DNA from: Candidatus Gottesmanbacteria bacterium
Lineage (GTDB): Bacteria > Patescibacteriota > Microgenomatia > UBA10105 > UBA927
Direction: 5' to 3'
Length of the DNA stretch: 64,000 nucleotides
Assembly: GCA_963701185.1 (NCBI GenBank)
Contig: OY969569.1
Span: forward strand, 859,548 to 923,547
Below the pieces are notes generated by a model. It was given only the letters and a program-made list of their open reading frames with translations, made no database searches and was not told the DNA's origin. Both the position numbers and the translations under genes were made by a program. How positions within the stretch are numbered: the first letter of the stretch is position 1; each line of letters opens with the position of its first letter. Shown here in pieces: positions 287-11,106 of the stretch.

Positions 287-373
287 GGAGAGGTCGCATA
301 GTGGTTTAGTGCGTTAGTCTTGAAAACTAATGTCGGCGCAAGCTGACCGTGGGTTCGAATCCCACCCTCTCCG
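287..373 (+). tRNA. tRNA-Ser (anticodon TGA)
   Basis: Acceptor GGAGAGG/CCTCTCC; anticodon loop CTTGAAA; long variable arm; T-arm GTGGGTTCGAATCCCAC; starts 1 nt after the previous tRNA. Confidence 0.8.
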
Positions 374-552
374 CATAAGGTCTTCGGTTGCTCCAAGACC
401 CATCTACTATACTCGATTAGCCCTATGTGGCTTGCTAAAAAGGCGATGGAAAACACAAGTATCCCAAACATAGCCTGTAATGCACAAAATCGCTGGAAAG
501 CCCCTCAAGGTATTTGCGCCCGGTTCTAAGCTTTCATTGATATAATGTTGTT

Positions 553-1551
553 ATGAAGAAAACATTAAAAGTCTGGATAGAAAAACAAGGATTTAGTATC
601 GATAAAGATATTGCTTTTACTATAGATAAAAGCACGAATGGAACCATTAAAAATACTGATAATCCCTACAAAACCATAGAATTTCTCCTTGAAAAAGAGA
701 TTTCGGTAAAAGAGTACCAAAGTGGATTTATAGGCAAATACAAAAATGAGCTCGCCTCATACTTGTTACGTTTCTTACAGTCATATGGGATTAAAAACGG
801 ATTGACCATCGTAATTGACCCCTCAGAGGTTCAGTCAAATGAGACCGAGTTATATGAAATATTTCGTTCTTACTGTACTGATAATCACTTAGATCCTTTA
901 TTAAAACCCACAGGCGGAAGTGTTGAATTTGTTTACGAAGAACTTCACTCAACCGATGTTGTCGATTTAGCTAAGCAGAATTTTACTTCTGACCCATATT
1001 TAATTTCAGCGATTGATTGGTATAACACTGGATTAATACAAACTCATTCTACAAATAAATTTCTTCATTTTTTTATTCCACTAGAAATTCTTGCAGGAAG
1101 ATTTATTACTGAAGTTAAAACGAATTGGAAAAAAGAAAATCCAGAGGCCTATAAGGGTATTAAATATTTCCTCGAAAAAGCGTTAGAAAGCAAAGATGAA
1201 GACATGCTCCAACGCTTGATGAACGATCTTTCAAGATTTTCTTTCCCGAAGCAACTAGAGCGATACTTTAATTTTTTGTTTTCAGAACAAGAGCTCGTCA
1301 ACTTTTGGGAAGATGATAGCGATATTACATTTAATGGTAAGCACCAATGGAAAACATATCGACTAATGAGTAAGCAAACTACAACTAAAGACAAAGTGCA
1401 TGTACTATCTATTATGAAAAAAATGTATCTAATCAGAAATAATATAGTTCATAAAGGATTGCAAAATGTTTCTTTCGAGGAAATTGTAGTTTTGGAAAAT
1501 ATTCTAAGGCGAGTTATCAAAAAACAATCTGAAAAACTAGCTAAGCATTAG
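553..1551 (+). CDS. Hypothetical protein with C-terminal HEPN-like Rx4H motif (possible Abi-type RNase)
   Basis: 332 aa; C-terminal LIRNNIVHKG matches Rx4-6H; AT-rich island cargo; TATAAT at 541-546 only 7 nt before the ATG, so leaderless. Confidence 0.35.
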   Translation: MKKTLKVWIEKQGFSIDKDIAFTIDKSTNGTIKNTDNPYKTIEFLLEKEISVKEYQSGFIGKYKNELASYLLRFLQSYGIKNGLTIVIDPSEVQSNETELYEIFRSYCTDNHLDPLLKPTGGSVEFVYEELHSTDVVDLAKQNFTSDPYLISAIDWYNTGLIQTHSTNKFLHFFIPLEILAGRFITEVKTNWKKENPEAYKGIKYFLEKALESKDEDMLQRLMNDLSRFSFPKQLERYFNFLFSEQELVNFWEDDSDITFNGKHQWKTYRLMSKQTTTKDKVHVLSIMKKMYLIRNNIVHKGLQNVSFEEIVVLENILRRVIKKQSEKLAKH

Positions 1552-2859
1552 CTCCCTGTTCATTAGTTTAAATTTTGAAGTAACACCTTTGAGGATTTTG
1601 AGTCTTTCCTCTGGAGTTCCAAATTGTAGAACGTGGAGTAAATATTCTTTGAGCATTTCAGTGTGAGTTTCACTATATTCTCTCGGACTCTGGTCACCTG
1701 TATTGTGAGGAGTAATTTCAACTTGTGGTATATAGTCACTAATCACGCTTGCTTTAAAATGTTGCAGTCGTTTTACTTCCACTTCAAATTCTTGCATTAG
1801 GTACGAAGTGTTAAGTTTGATTCTTGGTAGATAACCAATTAATTGTTTGATCAATTCTTGCTCTGTAATATAGGGCTCGGGGCAGTCATATTTTTTGATG
1901 CGATTGCAATGATAATAGATATGCGAGTTCACGATATTAGCTTTTGTTCTTCGATACTTTAGTTCAGCGGTGACGCTTCCTCCGCATAATCCGCAAGTAC
2001 AAATTTTCTTGAACGGAAACAGCTGTTTATTCCACTGTCTCGGAGCCACTTGCAGTTGAATCTGTACTTTTTCAAAGAGTGCTTTTGTAATCAATGGTTC
2101 GTAAGTTCCCTTGTACCATATGCCTCCGTATTGGAATTCACCGTAATAAAAAGTATTTTGTAATGCAACGTAGATTTTACTCAGTGGCATTTTACACCCA
2201 CTCTTTGTGGTGAATCCTATGTCATCTAACCACTTTTTAACCATGCGTCCTGAAAATCCTTGATCAGCAACTTTATGAAAAATTTGTTTAATAACAGGTG
2301 CTCGTTCAGGATCAAATTCCACTGTTGAAATACGATTTACTTTTAAGACGTTTCTATACCCAATTGGTGCAACTCCTGGTCTAATTCCAATCTGGCATTT
2401 GTTTCGTAACCCACGTTTAACATTGACACCTCGATTATCATTTTCTAATTTTGCTTGAGAGCAGAGAATCATAAGCAGGAATTTTTCATTTGGATTATCT
2501 GTAAAGGACTGCGAATATGTTTTGATGTGGGTCAGTTTTCCTTGATCCATTAAATCCACGATTCTTCCCAAGTCTCCCGCATTTCGAGATAACCGATCAG
2601 GTGCCCATGTCAAAATACTGTTGTATTTTCCTTCAATTACTCCATGGAGAAGATTATTAAACTCTGGTCGTTGTCCTGACTCTTTGGCTGAATGGCTTTC
2701 TGTAATTGTTTCTGTAATATCGAGCTTTTCTCGCTTTGCAAGAATTTGCATTTCTTTAAGCTGACCATCAATTGACATTGCCTGTCGCTCATCCGATTCG
2801 CTTGATTTGCGGGCATATAAGCAATACTTTAGCCTGGTGGTATCTTTCATCAGGTACAA
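1537..2859 (-). CDS. Large serine recombinase (resolvase/invertase catalytic domain, recombinase domain, zinc ribbon)
   Basis: N-terminal YARKSSESDE...DGQ catalytic-serine region, SRN motif; central recombinase domain; C-terminal CTCGLCGG...C zinc ribbon; 440 aa. Confidence 0.8.
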   Translation of the reverse strand: MYLMKDTTRLKYCLYARKSSESDERQAMSIDGQLKEMQILAKREKLDITETITESHSAKESGQRPEFNNLLHGVIEGKYNSILTWAPDRLSRNAGDLGRIVDLMDQGKLTHIKTYSQSFTDNPNEKFLLMILCSQAKLENDNRGVNVKRGLRNKCQIGIRPGVAPIGYRNVLKVNRISTVEFDPERAPVIKQIFHKVADQGFSGRMVKKWLDDIGFTTKSGCKMPLSKIYVALQNTFYYGEFQYGGIWYKGTYEPLITKALFEKVQIQLQVAPRQWNKQLFPFKKICTCGLCGGSVTAELKYRRTKANIVNSHIYYHCNRIKKYDCPEPYITEQELIKQLIGYLPRIKLNTSYLMQEFEVEVKRLQHFKASVISDYIPQVEITPHNTGDQSPREYSETHTEMLKEYLLHVLQFGTPEERLKILKGVTSKFKLMNRELMLS

Positions 2860-2952
2860 TGTACCGCAAAGGTTTGGGAAGTCCAGTCCTGAAAAATTCT
2901 TTCTTTAAGGCTGAAAATTAGCTATAATAGAAGAGTAAATTGGATTTTCCAT

Positions 2953-3750
2953 ATGTTTAAAAACCGAAAGAACTTACCCATCGCGCCTTTGTTATTAGTA
3001 GCAATTTTTATTATTTTTGGCGTTTATTACTACGCAAAAAATGGCCAGGTCTGGTTTGAGGGAAATGATAACAAAAGTTTACCTATTACGACTGATGGAT
3101 CACAAAAAACGATAGGTTGTGTCCGAACAACAAGACTTGAAAATGCACCACAGTACGATAGGGCATTAAGTCTTATCCGACAAAGGGTAGATGAAAATAA
3201 TAAATGGTGGAATAAGTATGGAGAAAAAGAAGATGGGAGATTTAAATATTTCCCTCCAGAACTTGTTAACTGTATAAAGATATCCGAAGAAGATATAAAA
3301 GACGCACCAGAGGTAGAGGGCTATTTTATATTCAATAGTGAAGACATAAAAACGGATTATTACCCCATTACCGTAAGTTCTGATTATCGTTATGCAGACG
3401 ATATCGTAACTGCAATTCTTTTATCGCATGAGATGACACATGTTCAACAATATATAAAGTCTGTCAATGAAAAGGATAGTCTATCTTGTATTGATAAAGA
3501 AATTGAGGCCTTCAGAGCTCAATTAGATTTTTATGTTCTTTTAAACAATGAAGAAAATAGTTCTGTCTATCACAGAATTCAAAGCGATAAGAATTTGCAT
3601 CCTGAGCTCCAGATGCTAGATGCAATGATGACAATAAATCGTGATTCAAATTGTAAGTTTGATAAGAGTTGCACGGATGCAAATTTACTGAGTAAACTTC
3701 GAGCAATGCTTATTGATGATAGTTATTATAAAAAGCAATGCAAATTGTAG
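2953..3750 (+). CDS. Membrane-anchored protein with HExxH zinc-metallopeptidase motif
   Basis: N-terminal TM helix (LPIAPLLLVAIFIIFGVYYY); LLSHEMTHVQ HExxH motif with downstream Glu; first gene of an overlapping three-gene operon. Confidence 0.4.
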   Translation: MFKNRKNLPIAPLLLVAIFIIFGVYYYAKNGQVWFEGNDNKSLPITTDGSQKTIGCVRTTRLENAPQYDRALSLIRQRVDENNKWWNKYGEKEDGRFKYFPPELVNCIKISEEDIKDAPEVEGYFIFNSEDIKTDYYPITVSSDYRYADDIVTAILLSHEMTHVQQYIKSVNEKDSLSCIDKEIEAFRAQLDFYVLLNNEENSSVYHRIQSDKNLHPELQMLDAMMTINRDSNCKFDKSCTDANLLSKLRAMLIDDSYYKKQCKL

Positions 3751-4256
3751 GTAAATACGTAAACTTAATAGCAGTCGACCATGCCTCTCAATGGAATGAA
3801 ACATTATCTAAAAAAAGCGAGCTCCGAGGTTATTTAAACAAAATAATTGAAAGTTGCTCCGTTGATTTAATTGGAGAGGAGTTTTCAATTGAAGCGTTGC
3901 AAGGATTGCCTAATAGCACCGAAGCAACTATTCCCCAAAAAGTCGCAAAGGAATTCCACATAAGACATGAATTCTGTGATCCTGATGAGAAAACACGAGA
4001 AAGAATTGGTTATCCTTCACAAAAACAATTACGAGTTAAGTTTGGTTTAAAATCAGCAATTGAAGGAACCAAAGAGCATAGTAGAAGGAAAGAGTATGAG
4101 AAATGTTTCTGGCCTATACGAGAGAAGTATTGGTTAGCTCAAATTCACAACATTATAGCTAAAAACATTATATTTATCTGCGGTTCTAGCCATTTAGAAA
4201 GCTTCAAATCTATTTTGACTGAAAATAGATATAGGGTTACAACAACAAAAATATGA
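3738..4256 (+). CDS. Hypothetical protein, operon partner 2
   Basis: 172 aa, no recognisable motif; overlaps the upstream gene by 13 nt and the downstream gene by ATGA. Confidence 0.3.
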   Translation: MQIVGKYVNLIAVDHASQWNETLSKKSELRGYLNKIIESCSVDLIGEEFSIEALQGLPNSTEATIPQKVAKEFHIRHEFCDPDEKTRERIGYPSQKQLRVKFGLKSAIEGTKEHSRRKEYEKCFWPIREKYWLAQIHNIIAKNIIFICGSSHLESFKSILTENRYRVTTTKI

Positions 4257-4711
4257 ACGATCCTATCCAAATAATTTTTTCTGCTTTGACTCTACTTGGT
4301 ATTGGAGGTATTGTTGGTGCTTATGTGTCTTCCTTGCTTGATAAAAAGAAAGAGTTGGAATTTAAACTACTAGAGCAAAAGGAAAGAAGATATAAATCTT
4401 GCCTTTTATATATGGATGCCTTTTTTGAACCTAAAAATATAAAATACCTCTCAAGCAGACAACCAGATATTGATAATTCGCATGATGTAATCGAATATTT
4501 AAAAATGGAATATCACGAGATGATGCTCTATGCCTCGAAAGCAGTGATACTTTCAGTTAAAGTGTTTATAGAAAAACCAACAAGAGAGAATTTTTTAAGG
4601 ACGATTCTTTGTATGCGACAAGATTTATGGGTCAACAAGAGAGATTTAAACCTAAGAGAGATCAAAATTGAGTTTCAAGCCCCAAAAGGCGGAAGAACCT
4701 CTAAAAAATGA
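4253..4711 (+). CDS. Hypothetical membrane-anchored protein, operon partner 3
   Basis: N-terminal TM (IIFSALTLLGIGGIVGAYVSSLL), then charged coiled region; ATGA overlap with the upstream gene. Confidence 0.3.
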   Translation: MNDPIQIIFSALTLLGIGGIVGAYVSSLLDKKKELEFKLLEQKERRYKSCLLYMDAFFEPKNIKYLSSRQPDIDNSHDVIEYLKMEYHEMMLYASKAVILSVKVFIEKPTRENFLRTILCMRQDLWVNKRDLNLREIKIEFQAPKGGRTSKK

Positions 4712-4745
4712 GACACCCTTTTTATAGTGTCTCATTTGTCTCATT
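4710..4745 (+). terminator. Putative intrinsic terminator
   Basis: GAGACAC-10 nt loop-GTGTCTC hairpin overlapping the stop codon, followed by ATTTGTCTCATTT. Confidence 0.4.
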
Positions 4746-4837
4746 TAGCCTCACCAATGAGACACTTAAATTGCAGTTATAAGGATGAAATATCCCGAAT
4801 TTGGTACAATACTAGTTATGGAGCTTATGGGATGCTT

Positions 4838-4864
4838 GGGGTTCCAGACCTACCCTCTCCGCCA
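4838..4864 (+). repeat. Degenerate copy of tRNA-Ser 3' end (T-arm plus acceptor), att-like
   Basis: GGGGTTCCAGACCTACCCTCTCCGCCA versus tRNA-Ser(TGA) 3' end GTGGGTTCGAATCCCACCCTCTCCGCA, about 21/27 identical; last 12 nt identical to Ser(CGA)/Ser(GGA) ends. Confidence 0.5.
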
Positions 4865-5014
4865 TTACATACAAAATAATAAACGGGGTATTCCGGCAAT
4901 CCGGAGCGGCAGAAAAGCACGTTCTAACTGAAAAATGCATTTAGCCTGACAGGGGGCGGGATTTGAACCTAACGGTGTAATCAGTTTACGAATTTAAATG
5001 TTGCACGGGTAATT

Positions 5015-5524
5015 ATGAACAACTTTCGTTTTAGCCCAATAAAAAATAAAGCGCAAATGATGCAAGCGCTGGAATATATTCATCTTTCTTGCCATCAACT
5101 GTGCAAACAATCGATGGGGAAATATTTACCGGTTGCTGGGAATATAGGTATATTTTGTCACCAAGATGATGAATTTGATTTCCTTAAACAGCTGCAGTCA
5201 GATTTAACGGATTTAACCAAGTACGTTTATGGAAAATATTATTTGCTCCATACTCCCATAGTTATTCCACAAAAAGACGGTATTCCGGAGGCGATTTATA
5301 AATATCTTTATATTCGGAAACCAGATACAAATAAACCACAAGTTGGAGATTTGGATTTCTATATGGCATCGGAGAAATACGCAGCCTTAAAACAGTCATT
5401 GCAGGAAGGAAAAGTAATAAACGGTGCTAGAATACTCCCAAATCGTCCCGATCTGGATTTAATTGAACTATCCAATCCGAATATAGATGCGGTTGGCTTT
5501 ATAGGAGATAAGTTTTGGAAGTAA
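5015..5524 (+). CDS. Hypothetical protein
   Basis: 169 aa ORF, AT-rich, no recognisable motifs. Confidence 0.3.
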   Translation: MNNFRFSPIKNKAQMMQALEYIHLSCHQLCKQSMGKYLPVAGNIGIFCHQDDEFDFLKQLQSDLTDLTKYVYGKYYLLHTPIVIPQKDGIPEAIYKYLYIRKPDTNKPQVGDLDFYMASEKYAALKQSLQEGKVINGARILPNRPDLDLIELSNPNIDAVGFIGDKFWK

Positions 5525-5602
5525 AATAGTTTTGAGCTTCCTCTACCGCTCGGAGTCAGTAGGTTTAGCTACTTATAGGTGTTTATTGGAGAGTTAATCG
5601 AC

Positions 5603-5674
5603 TATAATTTAATTGTTCCGTGGGCAGGCTCGCAGTTCTAAAATAGGTTATAACTTTGTAAATGGTTCTCCGCC
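5603..5674 (+). repeat. Direct repeat copy 1, about 72 bp, ending in TCTCCGCC
   Basis: Shares a 20-bp block (ATAATT.AATTGTTCCGT) and an exact 35-mer AAAATAGGTTATAACTTTGTAAATGGTTCTCCGCC with 6550-6621. Confidence 0.7.
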
Positions 5675-5796
5675 TTCGCCTCGCTGAAGTTCCGCCAAAG
5701 GCGGAACGAAAGCGGGCTTCGCCCGTTTCAGCTCGGCTTCGGCGAGACGCTGTCCGCCATTGTTTCGCCATAGCTTTAGCGACGGCGAATAAATCT
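5675..5796 (+). ncRNA. GC-rich, highly structured ~120-nt element of unknown function
   Basis: Local GC above 60% in an AT-rich context; nested perfect hairpins (GTTCCGCC-AAA-GGCGGAAC; GCGGGC-TTC-GCCCG; CTCG-GCTTCGG-CGAG; CGCC..GGCG). Confidence 0.3.
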
Positions 5797-6039
5797 ATGT
5801 TTTATGTCTACATTTTAAAATGTTCAGATAACCGTACGTATATAGGCTGCACCGATGACTTAAAAGATCGAGTTGACCGTCATCAAAAAGGTAATGTTGC
5901 CGCCACTAAAGATCGATTACCGATAAAACTCATTTCCTACTTTGCTTTCTCCAACAAATATACGGCGTTTAATTTCGAAAAATATCTGAAATCAGGATCT
6001 GGGAGAGCGTTTTTGAGGAAACATGATATTATTGGTTAA
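5797..6039 (+). CDS. Small GIY-YIG nuclease family protein (UPF0213/YhbQ-like)
   Basis: FYVYILKCSDNRTYIGCTDDLKDRVDRHQ matches the GIY-x10-YIG core; about 80 aa, single-domain family. Confidence 0.65.
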   Translation: MFYVYILKCSDNRTYIGCTDDLKDRVDRHQKGNVAATKDRLPIKLISYFAFSNKYTAFNFEKYLKSGSGRAFLRKHDIIG

Positions 6040-6044
6040 TTAAT

Positions 6045-6554
6045 ATGTTTTCTTCAGATCAAATCCGACAGTATTTGCAAATTACCATCGATGAAGCAGA
6101 GATAGCCTTAGAAGAAGGTAATTATCCAATTGGTTCTGCAATAGTCGATGTAGAAGGGAAAATATTGTCGACAGATAGAAACAAAAGTTTTACTAATGAG
6201 GATGTTTCCGCACATGCGGAAATCTTAGGAATTAGAAAGCTTGGCAATAAAGTAAATAAGGATACGCCTGGAGAATATTTTTTATTTTCCTCCCTTGAGC
6301 CATGTTTTGGATGCAGTTTCTTTATAGCTAGAACCAATATTAAACATATAACTTCTGCTTTAAAAGATCCCCATAAAGGCGGAATGAGTGATTTGCATAA
6401 ACTGGATCAGTTTAATTATTTTTTCAAACACATCGAAATTATTAATGAGCCTTTCGAGGATTTAAAGGAACAGTCTCGACGATTGATGGTAGAGTATTTT
6501 TTGAAATTAGGACGAAAAGATGCAGCAAAATTTTACGGGTATACAGGAGAATAA
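6045..6554 (+). CDS. CMP/dCMP-type (CDA fold) zinc deaminase, TadA/guanine-deaminase-like
   Basis: HAEILGI ... EPCFGCSF zinc-binding H(A)E / PCxxC motifs. Confidence 0.6.
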   Translation: MFSSDQIRQYLQITIDEAEIALEEGNYPIGSAIVDVEGKILSTDRNKSFTNEDVSAHAEILGIRKLGNKVNKDTPGEYFLFSSLEPCFGCSFFIARTNIKHITSALKDPHKGGMSDLHKLDQFNYFFKHIEIINEPFEDLKEQSRRLMVEYFLKLGRKDAAKFYGYTGE

Positions 6555-6621
6555 TTCAATTGTTCCGTAGGTAGCATAGTGGTTTTAAAATAGGTTATAA
6601 CTTTGTAAATGGTTCTCCGCC
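6550..6621 (+). repeat. Direct repeat copy 2, about 72 bp, ending in TCTCCGCC; right edge of the AT-rich island
   Basis: Exact 35-mer plus 20-bp block shared with 5603-5674; overlaps the stop codon of the deaminase gene. Confidence 0.7.
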
Positions 6622-6644
6622 CGAGAATTTGATACGATCACTAC

Positions 6645-6965
6645 ATGAACACATCCTCACATCTTCATGGTTCGCTTGACGAACACATACATTATCAGGA
6701 AGGATCCGTCGTCAGTAAAGAGATTTTTAAAAATCAATCAGGCACAGTGACGCTCTTTGCGTTTGATCAGGGGCAGGGTTTAAGTGAACATAAGACGCCT
6801 TACGAAGCATTGGTTTACATTGTTGACGGGGAAGCCCAAATAACACTATCCGGAAAAGTGAATGAAGTAAAAGCAGGAGAAATCATTCAGATGCCGGTCG
6901 GCCAACCCCATGCCCTTCAAGCAAAGAAACGGTTCAAGATGTTGTTAATTATGATGAAAGCGTAA
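6645..6965 (+). CDS. Cupin domain protein
   Basis: Cupin-like pattern GxxxEH...P...Y...G read from the translation. Confidence 0.5.
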   Translation: MNTSSHLHGSLDEHIHYQEGSVVSKEIFKNQSGTVTLFAFDQGQGLSEHKTPYEALVYIVDGEAQITLSGKVNEVKAGEIIQMPVGQPHALQAKKRFKMLLIMMKA

Positions 6966-8111: not shown

Positions 8112-10097
8112 CACGTCTTCCCCGTCTTTTTTATCCTGATGAATGAGCGTTCGAATTATTTTTCCCGCGCTGTCCAGAATCTCGAGCGTTCCGCCGTTTT
8201 GCCCCGTGAGCCGATCGTTGTACGTTTGTTCTGCGGCGCCCGTCCGGTCATCTGCCCGTATGTACCGTCCTGTTGCCGGAGTGAGTGTGATTCCCGGATA
8301 TGACAGGAGGGTCTCACGGACTTCGGCTGTTATAGGATGCGGCAAAATGCCGATTGCCGCCGGCCAGTCGGGCTGGCTGTTGACCATATACCGGTGGTAC
8401 AGGTTCACGGCGCTGTTCCCCGGAGGCCCCCCGAAAAGTTTTTCCAGGTATATAAGCATCTCCTGTTCGCGTGCAGGTTCAACTTTTTGAGGCGTTATCC
8501 ACACCATGTAGCTGGGGAAATCTGATGCAAGCACGGTCCCCTGACTGATAAGCGATCCGCGTCTTCCCGGTATCACGGTCGTTTTGAGGGAGTCGCCCCC
8601 GGTAAACCCCGCAATAAGGTACTGCGGCTGCCACGGAATGCGCCACCTGTTGTTTTCGTTGACAATAGGAAGACGGATTTTTTCCGTAAACCCACCCAGA
8701 TTTCTCGTGGTGTATGTTACCTCCAGTACTATGTATTGCGGACTGGCAAATTGTTTCCATGCGACCGGTTCGGCAGTAATGCTGATGGATTCAATATCTC
8801 CGTCCTTTATAATCCGCTGCATGTTCCGATGAAATGCATGTCTTGCCTCGGTTCTCTTTGTACTGTCGGTAAAGCGTTCATACATATCCTGGAAAAATCC
8901 GTGTTTCCAGTCGTAGAGAAACTGCCCGACGTCAGCTTCCGGCGTGGGAAATACGGCGTGCCAACCGGCATAGGCATTGAAAAACAGAAGGCTGCATGCG
9001 CAGGCGACAACCACCCATGTAGGTTTGAACGTCCGGATTGCAACAGCAGCCCCGATATACAAAAACGGAACAGTTAGGAGTAAATACCGCGTCCAGAAAG
9101 GAACAAACGTATAGAAGAGCATGATGAAAAAGACGGAGACCCAGATGGTGGCAACCCACATATTTTTCCGCGTCCTGTATGCCGTGTATGCGGAAAGAAT
9201 TGTGATAATCGGCCATGCTACGCTCCACTCCGGCACGGGTTGCCAAAGTTTGGTGAAGAGGTTTTGGGAGCGGTCAAAGAGTAGGGTCGTCCAGATACTT
9301 CCGATATTGGACTCCAATCGACTATTGGTGTAGAACATAAACATCCATTTTTGAACGCGCAGCCAATCAAGAAGCGTATGGCCCAACAAAAAATAGCGGG
9401 CATAGGAGAGCACATACATGCCTATTGCTGATACAAGAAAGATTAGTATATTGCGCGTTGAGCGTGTTTTTTTCCAGATATAATACCCGCCGACTGTCAG
9501 TAATATGACGGATAAAATCGGATACTTGATCGCAGAAAAAATACCCAGCGCAAGGCCTGCAGATGCGACACGCATGGGTCTGTATGGTTGGCCGACCGAA
9601 TAATGCAGCAGAATAAAGAACAGAAGGAGTGCAGAAAGATGCAGCGTGTCCAGCATAGTAGCCGTCCATTGTGACAGGAATATGAGATCAAAGGAGAACC
9701 AGGTGGCGGCAAGAAGCGCGTAGGTCGTATTCTTCAGTATGATTTTTGCCAAAACATAGAATAACAGTGCGGCCATAATCGATGTTGTTACCCCGTACCA
9801 ATATCCGTTTCCCGCAAGTTGTATGACGGCACCAATTGCGTATTTCCCCAACGGGGGAATCTCCGCGTTGTATTTTGTCGGATCAATGCCATAGACGAGT
9901 TGATACCCTTCATAGGCGTATAGCCCGTTATCACCGAGTGTTCTGTCGGAAAGAGGCAATTGCCATTGGGAATGTTCAAACCGGTCTTTCCAATACACAG
10001 CATCATAGGGGGACATAAGCTGCGCCCGGTTGGCCCAGAACAGTACGCCGGCAAGAAGAACGAGGAGTATAACGAGTACGACGTTCAATTTTTTCAC
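8103..10097 (-). CDS. Polytopic membrane glycosyltransferase, PMT/ArnT (GT39/GT83)-like, with C-terminal soluble domain
   Basis: At least 10 predicted TM helices in the N-terminal 400 aa, extracytoplasmic C-terminal domain; GTG start. Confidence 0.4.
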   Translation of the reverse strand: MKKLNVVLVILLVLLAGVLFWANRAQLMSPYDAVYWKDRFEHSQWQLPLSDRTLGDNGLYAYEGYQLVYGIDPTKYNAEIPPLGKYAIGAVIQLAGNGYWYGVTTSIMAALLFYVLAKIILKNTTYALLAATWFSFDLIFLSQWTATMLDTLHLSALLLFFILLHYSVGQPYRPMRVASAGLALGIFSAIKYPILSVILLTVGGYYIWKKTRSTRNILIFLVSAIGMYVLSYARYFLLGHTLLDWLRVQKWMFMFYTNSRLESNIGSIWTTLLFDRSQNLFTKLWQPVPEWSVAWPIITILSAYTAYRTRKNMWVATIWVSVFFIMLFYTFVPFWTRYLLLTVPFLYIGAAVAIRTFKPTWVVVACACSLLFFNAYAGWHAVFPTPEADVGQFLYDWKHGFFQDMYERFTDSTKRTEARHAFHRNMQRIIKDGDIESISITAEPVAWKQFASPQYIVLEVTYTTRNLGGFTEKIRLPIVNENNRWRIPWQPQYLIAGFTGGDSLKTTVIPGRRGSLISQGTVLASDFPSYMVWITPQKVEPAREQEMLIYLEKLFGGPPGNSAVNLYHRYMVNSQPDWPAAIGILPHPITAEVRETLLSYPGITLTPATGRYIRADDRTGAAEQTYNDRLTGQNGGTLEILDSAGKIIRTLIHQDKKDGEDVLL

Positions 10098-10105
10098 GTT
10101 AGGGG

Positions 10106-10111
10106 TATAAT
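10106..10111 (+). promoter_or_regulatory. -10 box TATAAT 9 nt upstream of tRNA-Arg(CCG)
   Basis: AGGGGTATAAT read directly. Confidence 0.45.
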
Positions 10112-10120
10112 AGGCTCTAA

Positions 10121-10193
10121 GCTCTCGTAGTTCAATGGATAGAATACGCCCCTCCGAAGGGTGTGATTGCAGTTCGACTCTGCACGAGAGCGC
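10121..10193 (+). tRNA. tRNA-Arg (anticodon CCG)
   Basis: Acceptor GCTCTCG/CGAGAGC; anticodon stem-loop CGCCC-CTCCGAA-GGGTG; D- and T-arms nearly identical to the tRNA at 7531. Confidence 0.8.
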
Positions 10194-10194
10194 A

Positions 10195-11106
10195 TTACCT
10201 GCTTACCCAATCTTTTACTTCCTGCAGGAGTCCCGAGCCGCTGGTAATCACAATACCAACAAGAACAAGGGCGGTGCCGAAAACAAACGCCGGTGAGATA
10301 GCTTCCTTCAGTACTGCGACATTGACGAGAATGGAGAAAACCGGCCCGATATAATTCTGAAGCGATGCGGTCGTTGCCGATGAGTGCTTAATTGCCCATT
10401 GGTACAAAAGATATGTGGCGACGGTAACGATCACGCCCAAGTGAAGAACAAGCAAAATCGTTGAAGGTTGAAGAAGAGTCGGTATATACGAAGGTTTAAA
10501 CGTAAACAGACTGATGACGAAAAATACGGCGGTTGTCGTAAATAAAAACATGCTTGTGACGGCGACAGGAGAGTACCCTTTATCTGCAATGGCCCGGCGT
10601 GAGCTGATTGTATAAAAGGACCATGCTATTGTGGCACATACAAAAAAGATATTTCCCGTTATGTTCCCTGAAACTGACTCACCCCGTGAAAAGGTCGGAA
10701 GAAAGGCTATAAAAAGAATTCCTGCAAATCCCACAAGAATACCTGTGAGTTTTTGCCTATTCAACCGTTCACCGATAAGATAGTGAGCTAAAATCGCGGT
10801 GAGCATCGGCGCGCCGGCGTAGGTGAGTGTCGCGGCATTGGCAGTGGAGAGTGATAATCCAAGATAATAAAAAAGGATGTTTATGGTGGCAAGAAGAGAA
10901 AAAGGGATGAGGTCGCGCATAAGATGCTTGCGTGTAACATTCGTTTTTAAAAAAATGGGCAAAATGACGAGTGAGGCTACAAAAAAACGAAGGAATGCGG
11001 CAAAATACGGGTCAAACTCCCGTACGATAATTTTGGAGAGCCCTGCGGTGGACCAGAGGAGCGAAGCCAGGATAATCGCAATAAGCGCTTTCGTGCGGGA
11101 AGACAT
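10195..11106 (-). CDS. EamA/DMT-family transporter
   Basis: 10-TM architecture with two EamA-like halves; starts 1 nt after the tRNA. Confidence 0.55.
   Translation of the reverse strand: MSSRTKALIAIILASLLWSTAGLSKIIVREFDPYFAAFLRFFVASLVILPIFLKTNVTRKHLMRDLIPFSLLATINILFYYLGLSLSTANAATLTYAGAPMLTAILAHYLIGERLNRQKLTGILVGFAGILFIAFLPTFSRGESVSGNITGNIFFVCATIAWSFYTISSRRAIADKGYSPVAVTSMFLFTTTAVFFVISLFTFKPSYIPTLLQPSTILLVLHLGVIVTVATYLLYQWAIKHSSATTASLQNYIGPVFSILVNVAVLKEAISPAFVFGTALVLVGIVITSGSGLLQEVKDWVSR

Follow-up and report, generated by a model that had tools for sequence, protein, structure and literature searches.

Three overlapping genes, here called ORF1, ORF2 and ORF3, occupy positions 2953–4711 of a 64,000-nucleotide (nt) stretch of the genome of Candidatus Gottesmanbacteria bacterium (assembly GCA_963701185.1, contig OY969569.1, positions 859,548 to 923,547), which is referred to below in its whole length as the window. 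The question raised by this locus is whether the three genes work together. In a preliminary description they had been proposed as a candidate defence, toxin or immunity module carried by a mobile element. When the neighbourhood of each gene was compared between genomes, the arrangement was found to be, in our judgement likely, a mosaic on a mobile island, composed of two cargo genes (ORF1 and ORF2) and an independent tail gene (ORF3), and not a dedicated system.

The features named below lie on the forward strand unless stated otherwise. ORF1 (2953–3750) codes for 265 amino acids (aa), ORF2 (3738–4256) for 172 aa and ORF3 (4253–4711) for 152 aa. ORF1 and ORF2 overlap by 13 nt (3738–3750), and ORF2 and ORF3 by the 4 nt ATGA (4253–4256); both overlaps are kept in L002, an island copy with 85% identity. 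The G + C content (GC) of ORF1–3 is 33–35%, and because stop codons are frequent at this composition, and because the homologues are under selection (80 for ORF1, 1,057 clusters by profile for ORF2 and 389 for ORF3), these are real genes and not chance open reading frames (ORFs). The anatomy given in the preliminary description was thus recovered to the exact coordinate, as were, with the details presented below, the membrane anchors of ORF1 and ORF3, the HEMTH motif of ORF1, the position on a horizontally acquired island between a serine recombinase and an att-like repeat, and a neighbouring gene with a HEPN-like motif. The three genes probably form one co-transcribed unit, as judged from their arrangement, and its promoter is presumed to lie in the 93-nt divergent intergenic region (2860–2952) between the recombinase gene and ORF1. 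This region contains neither the helix-turn-helix (HTH) gene nor the long non-coding region that are present at this place in most related elements, and no HTH homologue was found anywhere in the window.

The trio was found only in L001, a Logan contig of 4,389 bp identical to window positions 357–4745, whose ends do not overlap, in L002 (85% nt identity) and in the degenerate copy L037, all of which represent one island lineage. From the side of ORF1, 17 loci from species-representative genomes and three loci with the closest homologues (58–64% identity) were examined for ORF2 and ORF3 using tblastn and profile hidden Markov models (HMMs); only L002 gave a positive result, and the other loci, about 19, were negative. 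The neighbours of ORF1 vary from locus to locus and several are of a mobile kind, including other serine recombinases, MerR/HTH_17-type proteins, Fic and a primase-like gene. From the side of ORF2, a word-indexed search gave five relatives only. The closest homologues (57–61% identity) occur in three contexts (L089, L090 and L091/L092), where they are preceded by a conserved protein of 231–240 aa with three transmembrane helices and a duplicated Cys-rich C-terminal domain, which is unrelated to ORF1; no ORF3 was present near any of them. L089 also represents a serine-recombinase element, located next to a tRNA-Ser gene, and in L090 the membrane protein and the ORF2 homologue overlap by 14 nt. 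One distant ORF2 relative adjoins the housekeeping TsaD gene on a short contig, and the contigs of the distant relatives are in general too short for an informative context. The 231–240-aa protein itself (L089:5259–5954, L090:3218–3937, L091:5204–5926) is 73–75% identical among the three contexts and has no Pfam match.

The same comparison was made from the side of ORF3, using 66 metagenome loci in which this gene had been called. A same-strand upstream HTH_3 gene (65–75 aa) was observed in 24 of these loci and a recombinase gene in 15, both counts being lower bounds, as many of the loci are short contigs. The genes enclosed between the HTH gene and ORF3 belong to at least 24 unrelated families, and those confirmed by Pfam comprise an HNH protein with HNH_repeat, an APH phosphotransferase, a RibD_C/DHFR-like protein, several S-adenosylmethionine (SAM) methyltransferases, an Rce1-like CPBP protein with GrpB, a HindVP restriction enzyme with a C5 DNA methylase, and an aldehyde dehydrogenase. 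In the unit formed by recombinase, HTH gene, variable cargo and ORF3, the latter is always the last gene. The ATGA junction joins ORF3 to ORF2 and likewise to four other unrelated upstream families, among them the GrpB protein and an MTS methyltransferase, so that the overlap, which had been read as a sign of partnership, loses this meaning. No DNA motif marking a cassette junction was detected upstream of the ORF3 start codon beyond an A-rich stretch. Solitary copies of ORF3 among housekeeping genes were present in L025 (between leuS and obg), L027 (after the glycyl-tRNA synthetase gene), L063 (between purM and purD), L070 (next to argG), L094 and L095 (upstream of thrS). In about 15 loci ORF3 is flanked by genes of homing-endonuclease type (10 HNH, four GIY-YIG and one faint LAGLIDADG).

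Taken over about 19 ORF1, five ORF2 and 66 ORF3 loci with other neighbours, the co-occurrence in divergent genomes that characterizes a system was thus absent. The preliminary description had itself named the lack of co-occurrence in other genomes as what would speak against a module, and this is essentially what the gene neighbourhoods gave; its proposal that the three genes act as one system does not agree with a trio confined to a single island lineage.

The ORF3 protein has one hydrophobic segment (residues 7–25), followed by a Lys/Arg-rich stretch (DKKKELEFK...KERRYK), and from this distribution of charges an N-out, C-in topology is predicted, with a single N-terminal transmembrane helix and a helical domain in the cytoplasm. 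In the AlphaFold2 model (predicted local distance difference test, pLDDT, 80) the transmembrane helix runs into a long helix, which is followed by a four-helix bundle. At least 389 homologues were found, 70–93% identical to the protein of the window. According to the record labels they come from several lineages of the candidate phyla radiation (CPR), from Omnitrophota (L095, a 131-kb contig) and from Margulisiibacteriota (L094, a 573-kb contig); the label Methanobacteriaceae of one ORF3 on a 3.7-kb contig is distrusted, and labels of short contigs of metagenome-assembled genomes may be binning errors. When 41 full-length copies were compared in pairs, the identity averaged 0.83 at the first, 0.90 at the second and 0.53 at the third codon position, and very strong purifying selection therefore acts on the protein. 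The GC of the gene is 0.31–0.41 in loci of GC 0.32–0.58, and since it remains low regardless of the host, ORF3 has been imported. In loci with both genes, ORF3 is 71–78% identical to the copy of the window and the recombinase 27–44%. No informative family, PDB or phage-structure match was obtained for ORF3, and literature searches found no description of it or of this element family. A role as recombination directionality factor was considered and rejected, ORF3 being membrane-anchored and often found without any recombinase. ORF3 may provide a self-contained membrane function, either broadly useful or serving the element, for example exclusion, maintenance or membrane-linked protection.

The element that carries the three genes is an integrative island of about 4.5 kb and low GC (about 359–4850), located in the T-loop of tRNA-Ser(tga), with a GC of 0.31–0.39 inside the island versus 0.45–0.54 beyond about 7 kb. 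The target gene (287–374; ARAGORN; Rfam tRNA, 62.6 bits) lies together with tRNA-Ser(gct) at 198–374, and the left junction falls at about 357–359, within the T-loop, a target habit typical of tyrosine integrases. The integrase of the island is a large serine recombinase of 440 aa, encoded on the reverse strand (1537–2859), which showed matches to Resolvase (PF00239, 6.6e-19), Recombinase (PF07508, 7.3e-12) and Zn_ribbon_recom (PF13408, 6.8e-07), all above the Pfam cut-offs; its amino acid identity is 90–93% in L002 and L020 and about 27–44% in other ORF3-bearing elements. In L020, L029, L033/L034, L044, L059 and L089 a tRNA-Ser gene abuts the recombinase gene.

On the right side, a conserved terminal segment (4706–4850), with a 7-bp inverted repeat GAGACAC...GTGTCTC (4712–4735) just past the ORF3 stop codon, is closed by GGTTCCAGACC (4840–4850), which stands at the equal relative position in L002, L019, L020 and L037. 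The similarity to L002, L020 and L037 ends at 4850, and the discrete ends (about 359 and 4850) are common to these three copies. The right junction is covered by an att-like repeat (4839–4864), 20 of whose 26 bases match the 3' end of tRNA-Ser(tga) at 351–376. From the two junctions, the present 3' end of the tRNA gene (about 359–374) would have been supplied by the island as a replacement, and the original 3' end, now degenerate, would have been pushed to about 4851–4864 on the host side. In five sister elements, a search past ORF3 found no direct repeat of the tRNA 3' end on the downstream side, which fits a serine recombinase, since such enzymes make no long duplications; for this reason the boundaries of the island were set by comparison of its copies. 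In L023 (5951–5975), GGTTCCAGACC and a tRNA-like 3' end are located about 30 nt upstream of ORF3 and not downstream, and in L025 a tRNA 3' end is located about 40 nt upstream; att-like or tRNA sequences can therefore be found both before and after ORF3.

Comparison of the copies gave at least three variable slots: slot A, from the left end to the 3' end of the recombinase gene; slot B, from the 5' end of the recombinase gene to ORF3; and slot C, after ORF3. In the window, slot A is occupied by orfA (553–1551, 332 aa), whose product carries the R-x4-H motif RNNIVH near the C-terminus, the HEPN-like motif noticed earlier, and gave no family match in Pfam, PADLOC, NCBIfam or PHROGs. L002, the DNA of which is 85–88% identical over window positions 359–534 and 1565–4850, has an unrelated gene of 256 aa in place of orfA. 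L020 adjoins the same pair of tRNA-Ser genes, and its recombinase and ORF3 are 92% and 89% identical in amino acid sequence to those of the window; its slot A contains a gene of 245 aa, unrelated to orfA and with a weak DUF5677 match, its slot B an HTH_3 regulator and an HNH endonuclease in place of ORF1 and ORF2, and its slot C three extra genes after ORF3. The terminal segment of L020 (146 nt, 8528–8672), 90% identical to window positions 4706–4850, is found 2 kb past ORF3. The region 540–1323 of L037 is a degenerate right end of the island, in which ORF2 is truncated and ORF3 broken into two parts; it also contains 79 nt of ORF1, 91% identical to window positions 3287–3365.

The first of the two cargo proteins, ORF1, contains one hydrophobic segment (residues 8–26) preceded by the basic residues K3, R5 and K6, the HEMTH motif at residues 159–163 (nt 3427–3441), and six Cys residues, all C-terminal to the transmembrane segment. 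A basic N-terminus before a single transmembrane segment predicts a type II orientation, which would place the catalytic domain and the six Cys outside the cell; conserved Cys residues in that location suggest disulfide bonds, and the ectodomain is probably disulfide-bonded. Among 28 homologues (32–69% identity), H159, E160, H163 and E183 are invariant, as are four of the six Cys, the other two being present in at least 90%. HExxH is thus accompanied by a downstream Glu as the putative third ligand, as in zincins. About 80 homologues were found, mostly in CPR bacteria, and hardly any genomes outside CPR/Patescibacteria and TM6 carry a member of the family. Pfam matches within the family remained below threshold (DUF6782 in 10 of 28 members, PhageMetallopep in five and eCIS_core in four), the best match of ORF1 itself being DUF6782 with 14.4 bits against a cut-off of 27, so that no curated family was matched at threshold, and a profile search of PDB was empty. 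The protein shares with DUF6782 (PF20573), PhageMetallopep (PF18894) and eCIS_core/DUF4157 (PF13699) an HExxHxxQ-type motif with a Glu about 20 residues further on; it differs from them in its N-terminal anchor and in the six conserved Cys of an extracytoplasmic domain of about 210 aa, and its scores against them are far under the gathering scores (14 versus 27 bits). ORF1 is therefore best described as a member of a new family, mostly restricted to CPR and TM6, of predicted membrane-anchored HExxH zincin-like proteins, and is most likely a cell-surface zinc metallopeptidase with an N-terminal helix anchor. In other genomes, paralogues of the ORF1 family stand in tandem or nearby (L102:5001–6663; L003:5983–6789 and 9673–10806) with about 27–33% identity, those of L102 at 1.2 kb from another large serine recombinase.

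The second cargo protein, ORF2, has no hydrophobic segment, and its AlphaFold2 model (pLDDT 89) showed five strands alternating with helices. With a full HMM search, at least 1,057 clusters could be assigned to its family at E ≤ 1e-3, and 570 at E ≤ 1e-10; most of the members stand alone as proteins some 170 aa long. Across 51 diverse members the residues H15, E47, E129, W132, G149 and H152 are invariant and Q18, E48, H77, C80, R87, R128, F146 and F156 nearly so. The conserved positions fall into four blocks, a strand followed by x-x-H, a strand followed by EE, RE-x-x-W in a helix and a strand followed by G-x-x-H, which match LVGTAH, VCLEW, VERDQY and VIGQAH of PrgY one for one and in the same order. 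The active site of the TIKI superfamily has been described as a 2His/2Glu plus Arg motif (PMC6254334), and the ORF2 family holds the corresponding set (His...Glu...Arg...His), whose residues may be catalytic. When 7,815 translated ORFs were searched with the HMM of the family, PrgY of pCF10 was the only match from outside it (19 bits, per-sequence P 4e-8, E 3.3e-4), restricted to the C-terminal half; hhalign, too, brought the RE...GxxH blocks of the family and of PrgY together. TraB_PrgY_gumN was the commonest weak Pfam match in the family, DUF5694 being also weakly matched in more than one member, and NCBIfam gave nothing for it. HopBA1 (5t09), a TIKI member, ranked 20 in a Foldseek search with the ORF2 model (E 0.11, TM-score 0.37); the TIKI fold was taken as an alpha+beta structure with a central parallel sheet flanked by helices, as in ChaN (2G5G), Bcr135 (3B55) and HopBA1 (5T09).

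Membership of ORF2 in the TIKI/TraB superfamily is on these grounds fairly likely, and the protein is most likely a small cytoplasmic hydrolase, a peptidase or esterase, of TIKI/TraB/PrgY type. With the TIKI/TraB/PrgY/GumN–erythromycin esterase–ChaN superfamily (PF01963 and relatives) it has in common the alpha/beta architecture of strands alternating with helices and the 2His/2Glu plus Arg set, whose order is the same and whose spacing is similar; unlike TraB/PrgY domains it has about 170 aa, roughly half their size, and neither a transmembrane segment nor a signal peptide.

The earlier statement that none of the three proteins was recognisable was accurate for family matches at threshold in Pfam, NCBIfam, PHROGs and PADLOC. 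The absence of motifs from ORF2, also stated there, no longer applies, as ORF2 carries the TIKI/TraB set. PADLOC gave no match at E ≤ 1 for ORF1, ORF2, ORF3, orfA or the recombinase, and searches with PHROGs and NCBIfam gave nothing usable for the three proteins, Pfam giving matches below threshold only; thus no defence, toxin or phage family was matched for the three genes. Sequence and profile searches of PDB with A2, A3, A4 and A5 returned chance-level matches only. Relatives were absent from IMG/VR for ORF2 and ORF3, from the INPHARED phages for ORF1 and ORF3 and from the PLSDB plasmids for ORF2 and ORF3, and an origin from phage or plasmid was rejected for the genes searched in each collection.

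The following course of events would account for the locus. The large serine recombinase would insert the island of about 4.5 kb into the T-loop of tRNA-Ser(tga), and the intergenic region between the recombinase gene and ORF1 would drive a single transcript over the two cargo genes and the tail gene. ORF1 and ORF2 would fill a variable cargo slot with a surface peptidase of zincin-like type and a cytoplasmic TIKI-like hydrolase, and ORF3, the fixed last gene of the element family that also travels alone, would act independently of both. The overlaps would then reflect the splicing of cargo against the start codon of ORF3 and not a common function.

Several results weigh against parts of this proposal. 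Simple scans of the ORF1–3 region found neither a promoter nor a terminator, and in 2860–2952 a weak sigma-70-like site was found on the minus strand only and none on the plus strand; because the scans gave neither signal, co-transcription was deduced from the overlaps alone. As to ORF2, the hhalign probability for the alignment of its family with PrgY was 19%, Pfam TraB_PrgY_gumN was matched by four of 51 family members with a best E of 0.029, below the cut-off, and Foldseek gave no significant PDB match with the model. The frame around the cargo is known from the lower-bound counts given above, and the spread of ORF3 from record labels of which one is distrusted. Finally, the 13-nt overlap between ORF1 and ORF2 is kept in L002, and close ORF2 homologues elsewhere likewise follow a membrane-anchored Cys-rich protein, so that a pairing of these two genes keeps a small probability. 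In such a two-gene cassette, independent of ORF3, ORF1 and ORF2 would work from the two faces of the membrane on a peptide signal or peptide toxin, which they might process or destroy, in loose parallel to the control of enterococcal pheromone peptides by PrgY/TraB. The TIKI/TraB-like motifs of ORF2 agree with such a role, and the 231–240-aa membrane protein that precedes the ORF2 homologues in three contexts, with a 14-nt overlap in L090, indicates that ORF2-type genes tend to follow a membrane, extracytoplasmic partner. That partner is, however, unrelated to ORF1, about 19 ORF1 loci contain no ORF2-like gene by profile search, a distant ORF2 relative stands beside the housekeeping TsaD gene on its short contig, and the pairing of ORF1 and ORF2 has a single evolutionary origin, which leaves its co-occurrence statistically weightless; the cassette is for these reasons unlikely.

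An undescribed three-gene defence, toxin or immunity system, with a membrane protease-like sensor or effector and two dedicated partners, would explain why the tight overlaps are kept in L002 and why two membrane proteins and a putative hydrolase share a mobile island beside a recombinase. Restriction-modification genes and HNH nucleases fill the same slot in sister elements, and one report, which concerns small serine recombinases, describes serine recombinases as marking defence loci (PMC13552941). Such a system is nevertheless very unlikely: PADLOC gave no match, the trio is limited to one island lineage, each of the genes also occurs elsewhere by itself or in other company, the ATGA junction is a general property of ORF3, and the slot also holds APH, DHFR-like and aldehyde dehydrogenase genes, which are not sensors; that the trio is missing from about 19 ORF1 loci and from 66 ORF3 loci counts strongly against it. 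The constant last position of ORF3, its frequent translational coupling, its extreme constraint and its membrane anchor with a long cytoplasmic helix could also be those of a generic adaptor or effector, a membrane tether or common executioner for any cargo. Such a role is hardly probable at all, as cargo ranging from restriction-modification to aldehyde dehydrogenase, APH and DHFR-like proteins offers no plausible common partner surface, and as ORF3 stands alone between housekeeping genes. Quite unlikely, too, is that selfish elements mainly account for the spread of ORF3 and for the sharp limits of its conservation, with ORF3 as the homing target of free-standing homing endonucleases or as a hitch-hiker with them, its position on the island being incidental. 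Endonuclease-type genes do directly flank ORF3 in about 15 loci, DNA conservation begins at most about 10 nt from its start codon, and its GC is foreign to its hosts; against this, the protein is conserved although the third codon positions are close to saturation, which indicates selection on the protein and not on a DNA target, and most ORF3 loci have no endonuclease gene nearby. The mosaic of two cargo genes and an independent tail gene thus remains the likely reading.

Some further features were observed in the sister elements and beside the island. In many sister elements a stretch of 350–490 nt between the recombinase and HTH genes is conserved (for example L029:3187–3675, L044:3962–4387, L059:4450–4875 and L053:690–1037), with a GC of 0.47–0.49, codon-position identities of 0.67/0.65/0.63 and 0.74/0.77/0.78, and no Rfam match. 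The ORFs "F5" and "F6" in this gap were considered as conserved proteins and rejected, showing no codon periodicity and a higher GC; the stretch is probably a conserved non-coding region or a structured RNA, and it is not present in the island of the window. In L033 (3–248, reverse strand, and 2680–3030, forward strand), and likewise in L034, it occurs twice, inverted, around a block of HTH gene, cargo and ORF3, with the recombinase gene on the far side, and a further occurrence is listed with these at L038:1587–1781; the inverted copies in L033 and L034 could represent an invertible segment or head-to-head elements. Just outside the island, a second low-GC block (4865–6700) contains an ORF of 169 aa with no family named (5015–5524), a GIY-YIG gene (5662–6039) and a gene for a deaminase of cytidine/dCMP type (6045–6554). 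The latter two are bracketed by a 71-nt direct repeat, 87% identical (5604–5674 and 6551–6621), in the second copy of which 17 nt match the 5' part of tRNA-Ser, and homologues of the GIY-YIG gene adjoin ORF3 or tRNA-Ser in L030, L049, L083 and L094.

Large serine recombinases serve a variety of mobile elements, such as SCCmec with Ccr, Tn4451 with TnpX and prophages with integrases of the phiC31/Bxb1 type. Like these, the island has a protein with Resolvase, Recombinase and Zn-ribbon domains, site-specific insertion with sharp ends and accessory cargo. It differs from them in its size of only about 4.5 kb, in the absence of replication, transfer or phage genes and in its target, the T-loop of tRNA-Ser, and its family differs further in that a fixed tail gene, ORF3, and mostly an HTH gene frame the cargo. 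Cargo hotspots framed by conserved genes are known from integron cassette arrays and from the defence hotspots of P2/P4-like elements. In the ORF3 elements, similarly, one to three genes of many unrelated families stand between two conserved flanks, recombinase/HTH on one side and ORF3 on the other, and restriction-modification and resistance-type genes are among them; unlike integrons, the ORF3 elements have no IntI-type tyrosine integrase, no attC-like repeats and no conserved junction motif upstream of ORF3.

Most of what was found falls into kinds already known, to which it adds new members: an island of the serine-recombinase type, a divergent zincin family and a divergent TIKI-like family, the last being a minimal TIKI/TraB-like family of at least 1,057 clusters covered by no curated model. 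The result is also a corrective one, as gene overlap and island location alone had suggested a false "system", which was exposed by a cheap test, neighbourhood conservation seen from the side of each gene. The residue that the known kinds leave unexplained is ORF3, which is of most interest, and the architecture of cargo exchange, the identity of ORF3 of 70–93% across phyla, while the recombinase drifts to about 30%, pointing to a strongly selected function. A bolder reading, to which only a small chance is given, is that ORF3 is an undescribed, exceptionally constrained mobile membrane protein that closes a slot for cassette exchange as its fixed 3' boundary, within an equally undescribed family of compact serine-recombinase elements directed to tRNA-Ser in CPR and other uncultured bacteria; the conserved non-coding region of about 400 nt beside the recombinase gene in sister elements might take part. 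If this were true, the element family would be a functional analogue of the integron or the defence hotspot with a different machinery, and ORF3 would contribute a new function at the level of the element, for which exclusion, maintenance and membrane-linked protection are examples. For CPR and other uncultured bacteria, in which few mobile elements have been described, compact islands targeting tRNA-Ser appear as vehicles of very diverse cargo, from restriction-modification systems, HNH nucleases and resistance-type enzymes to the putative surface peptidase and TIKI-like enzyme of the present locus.

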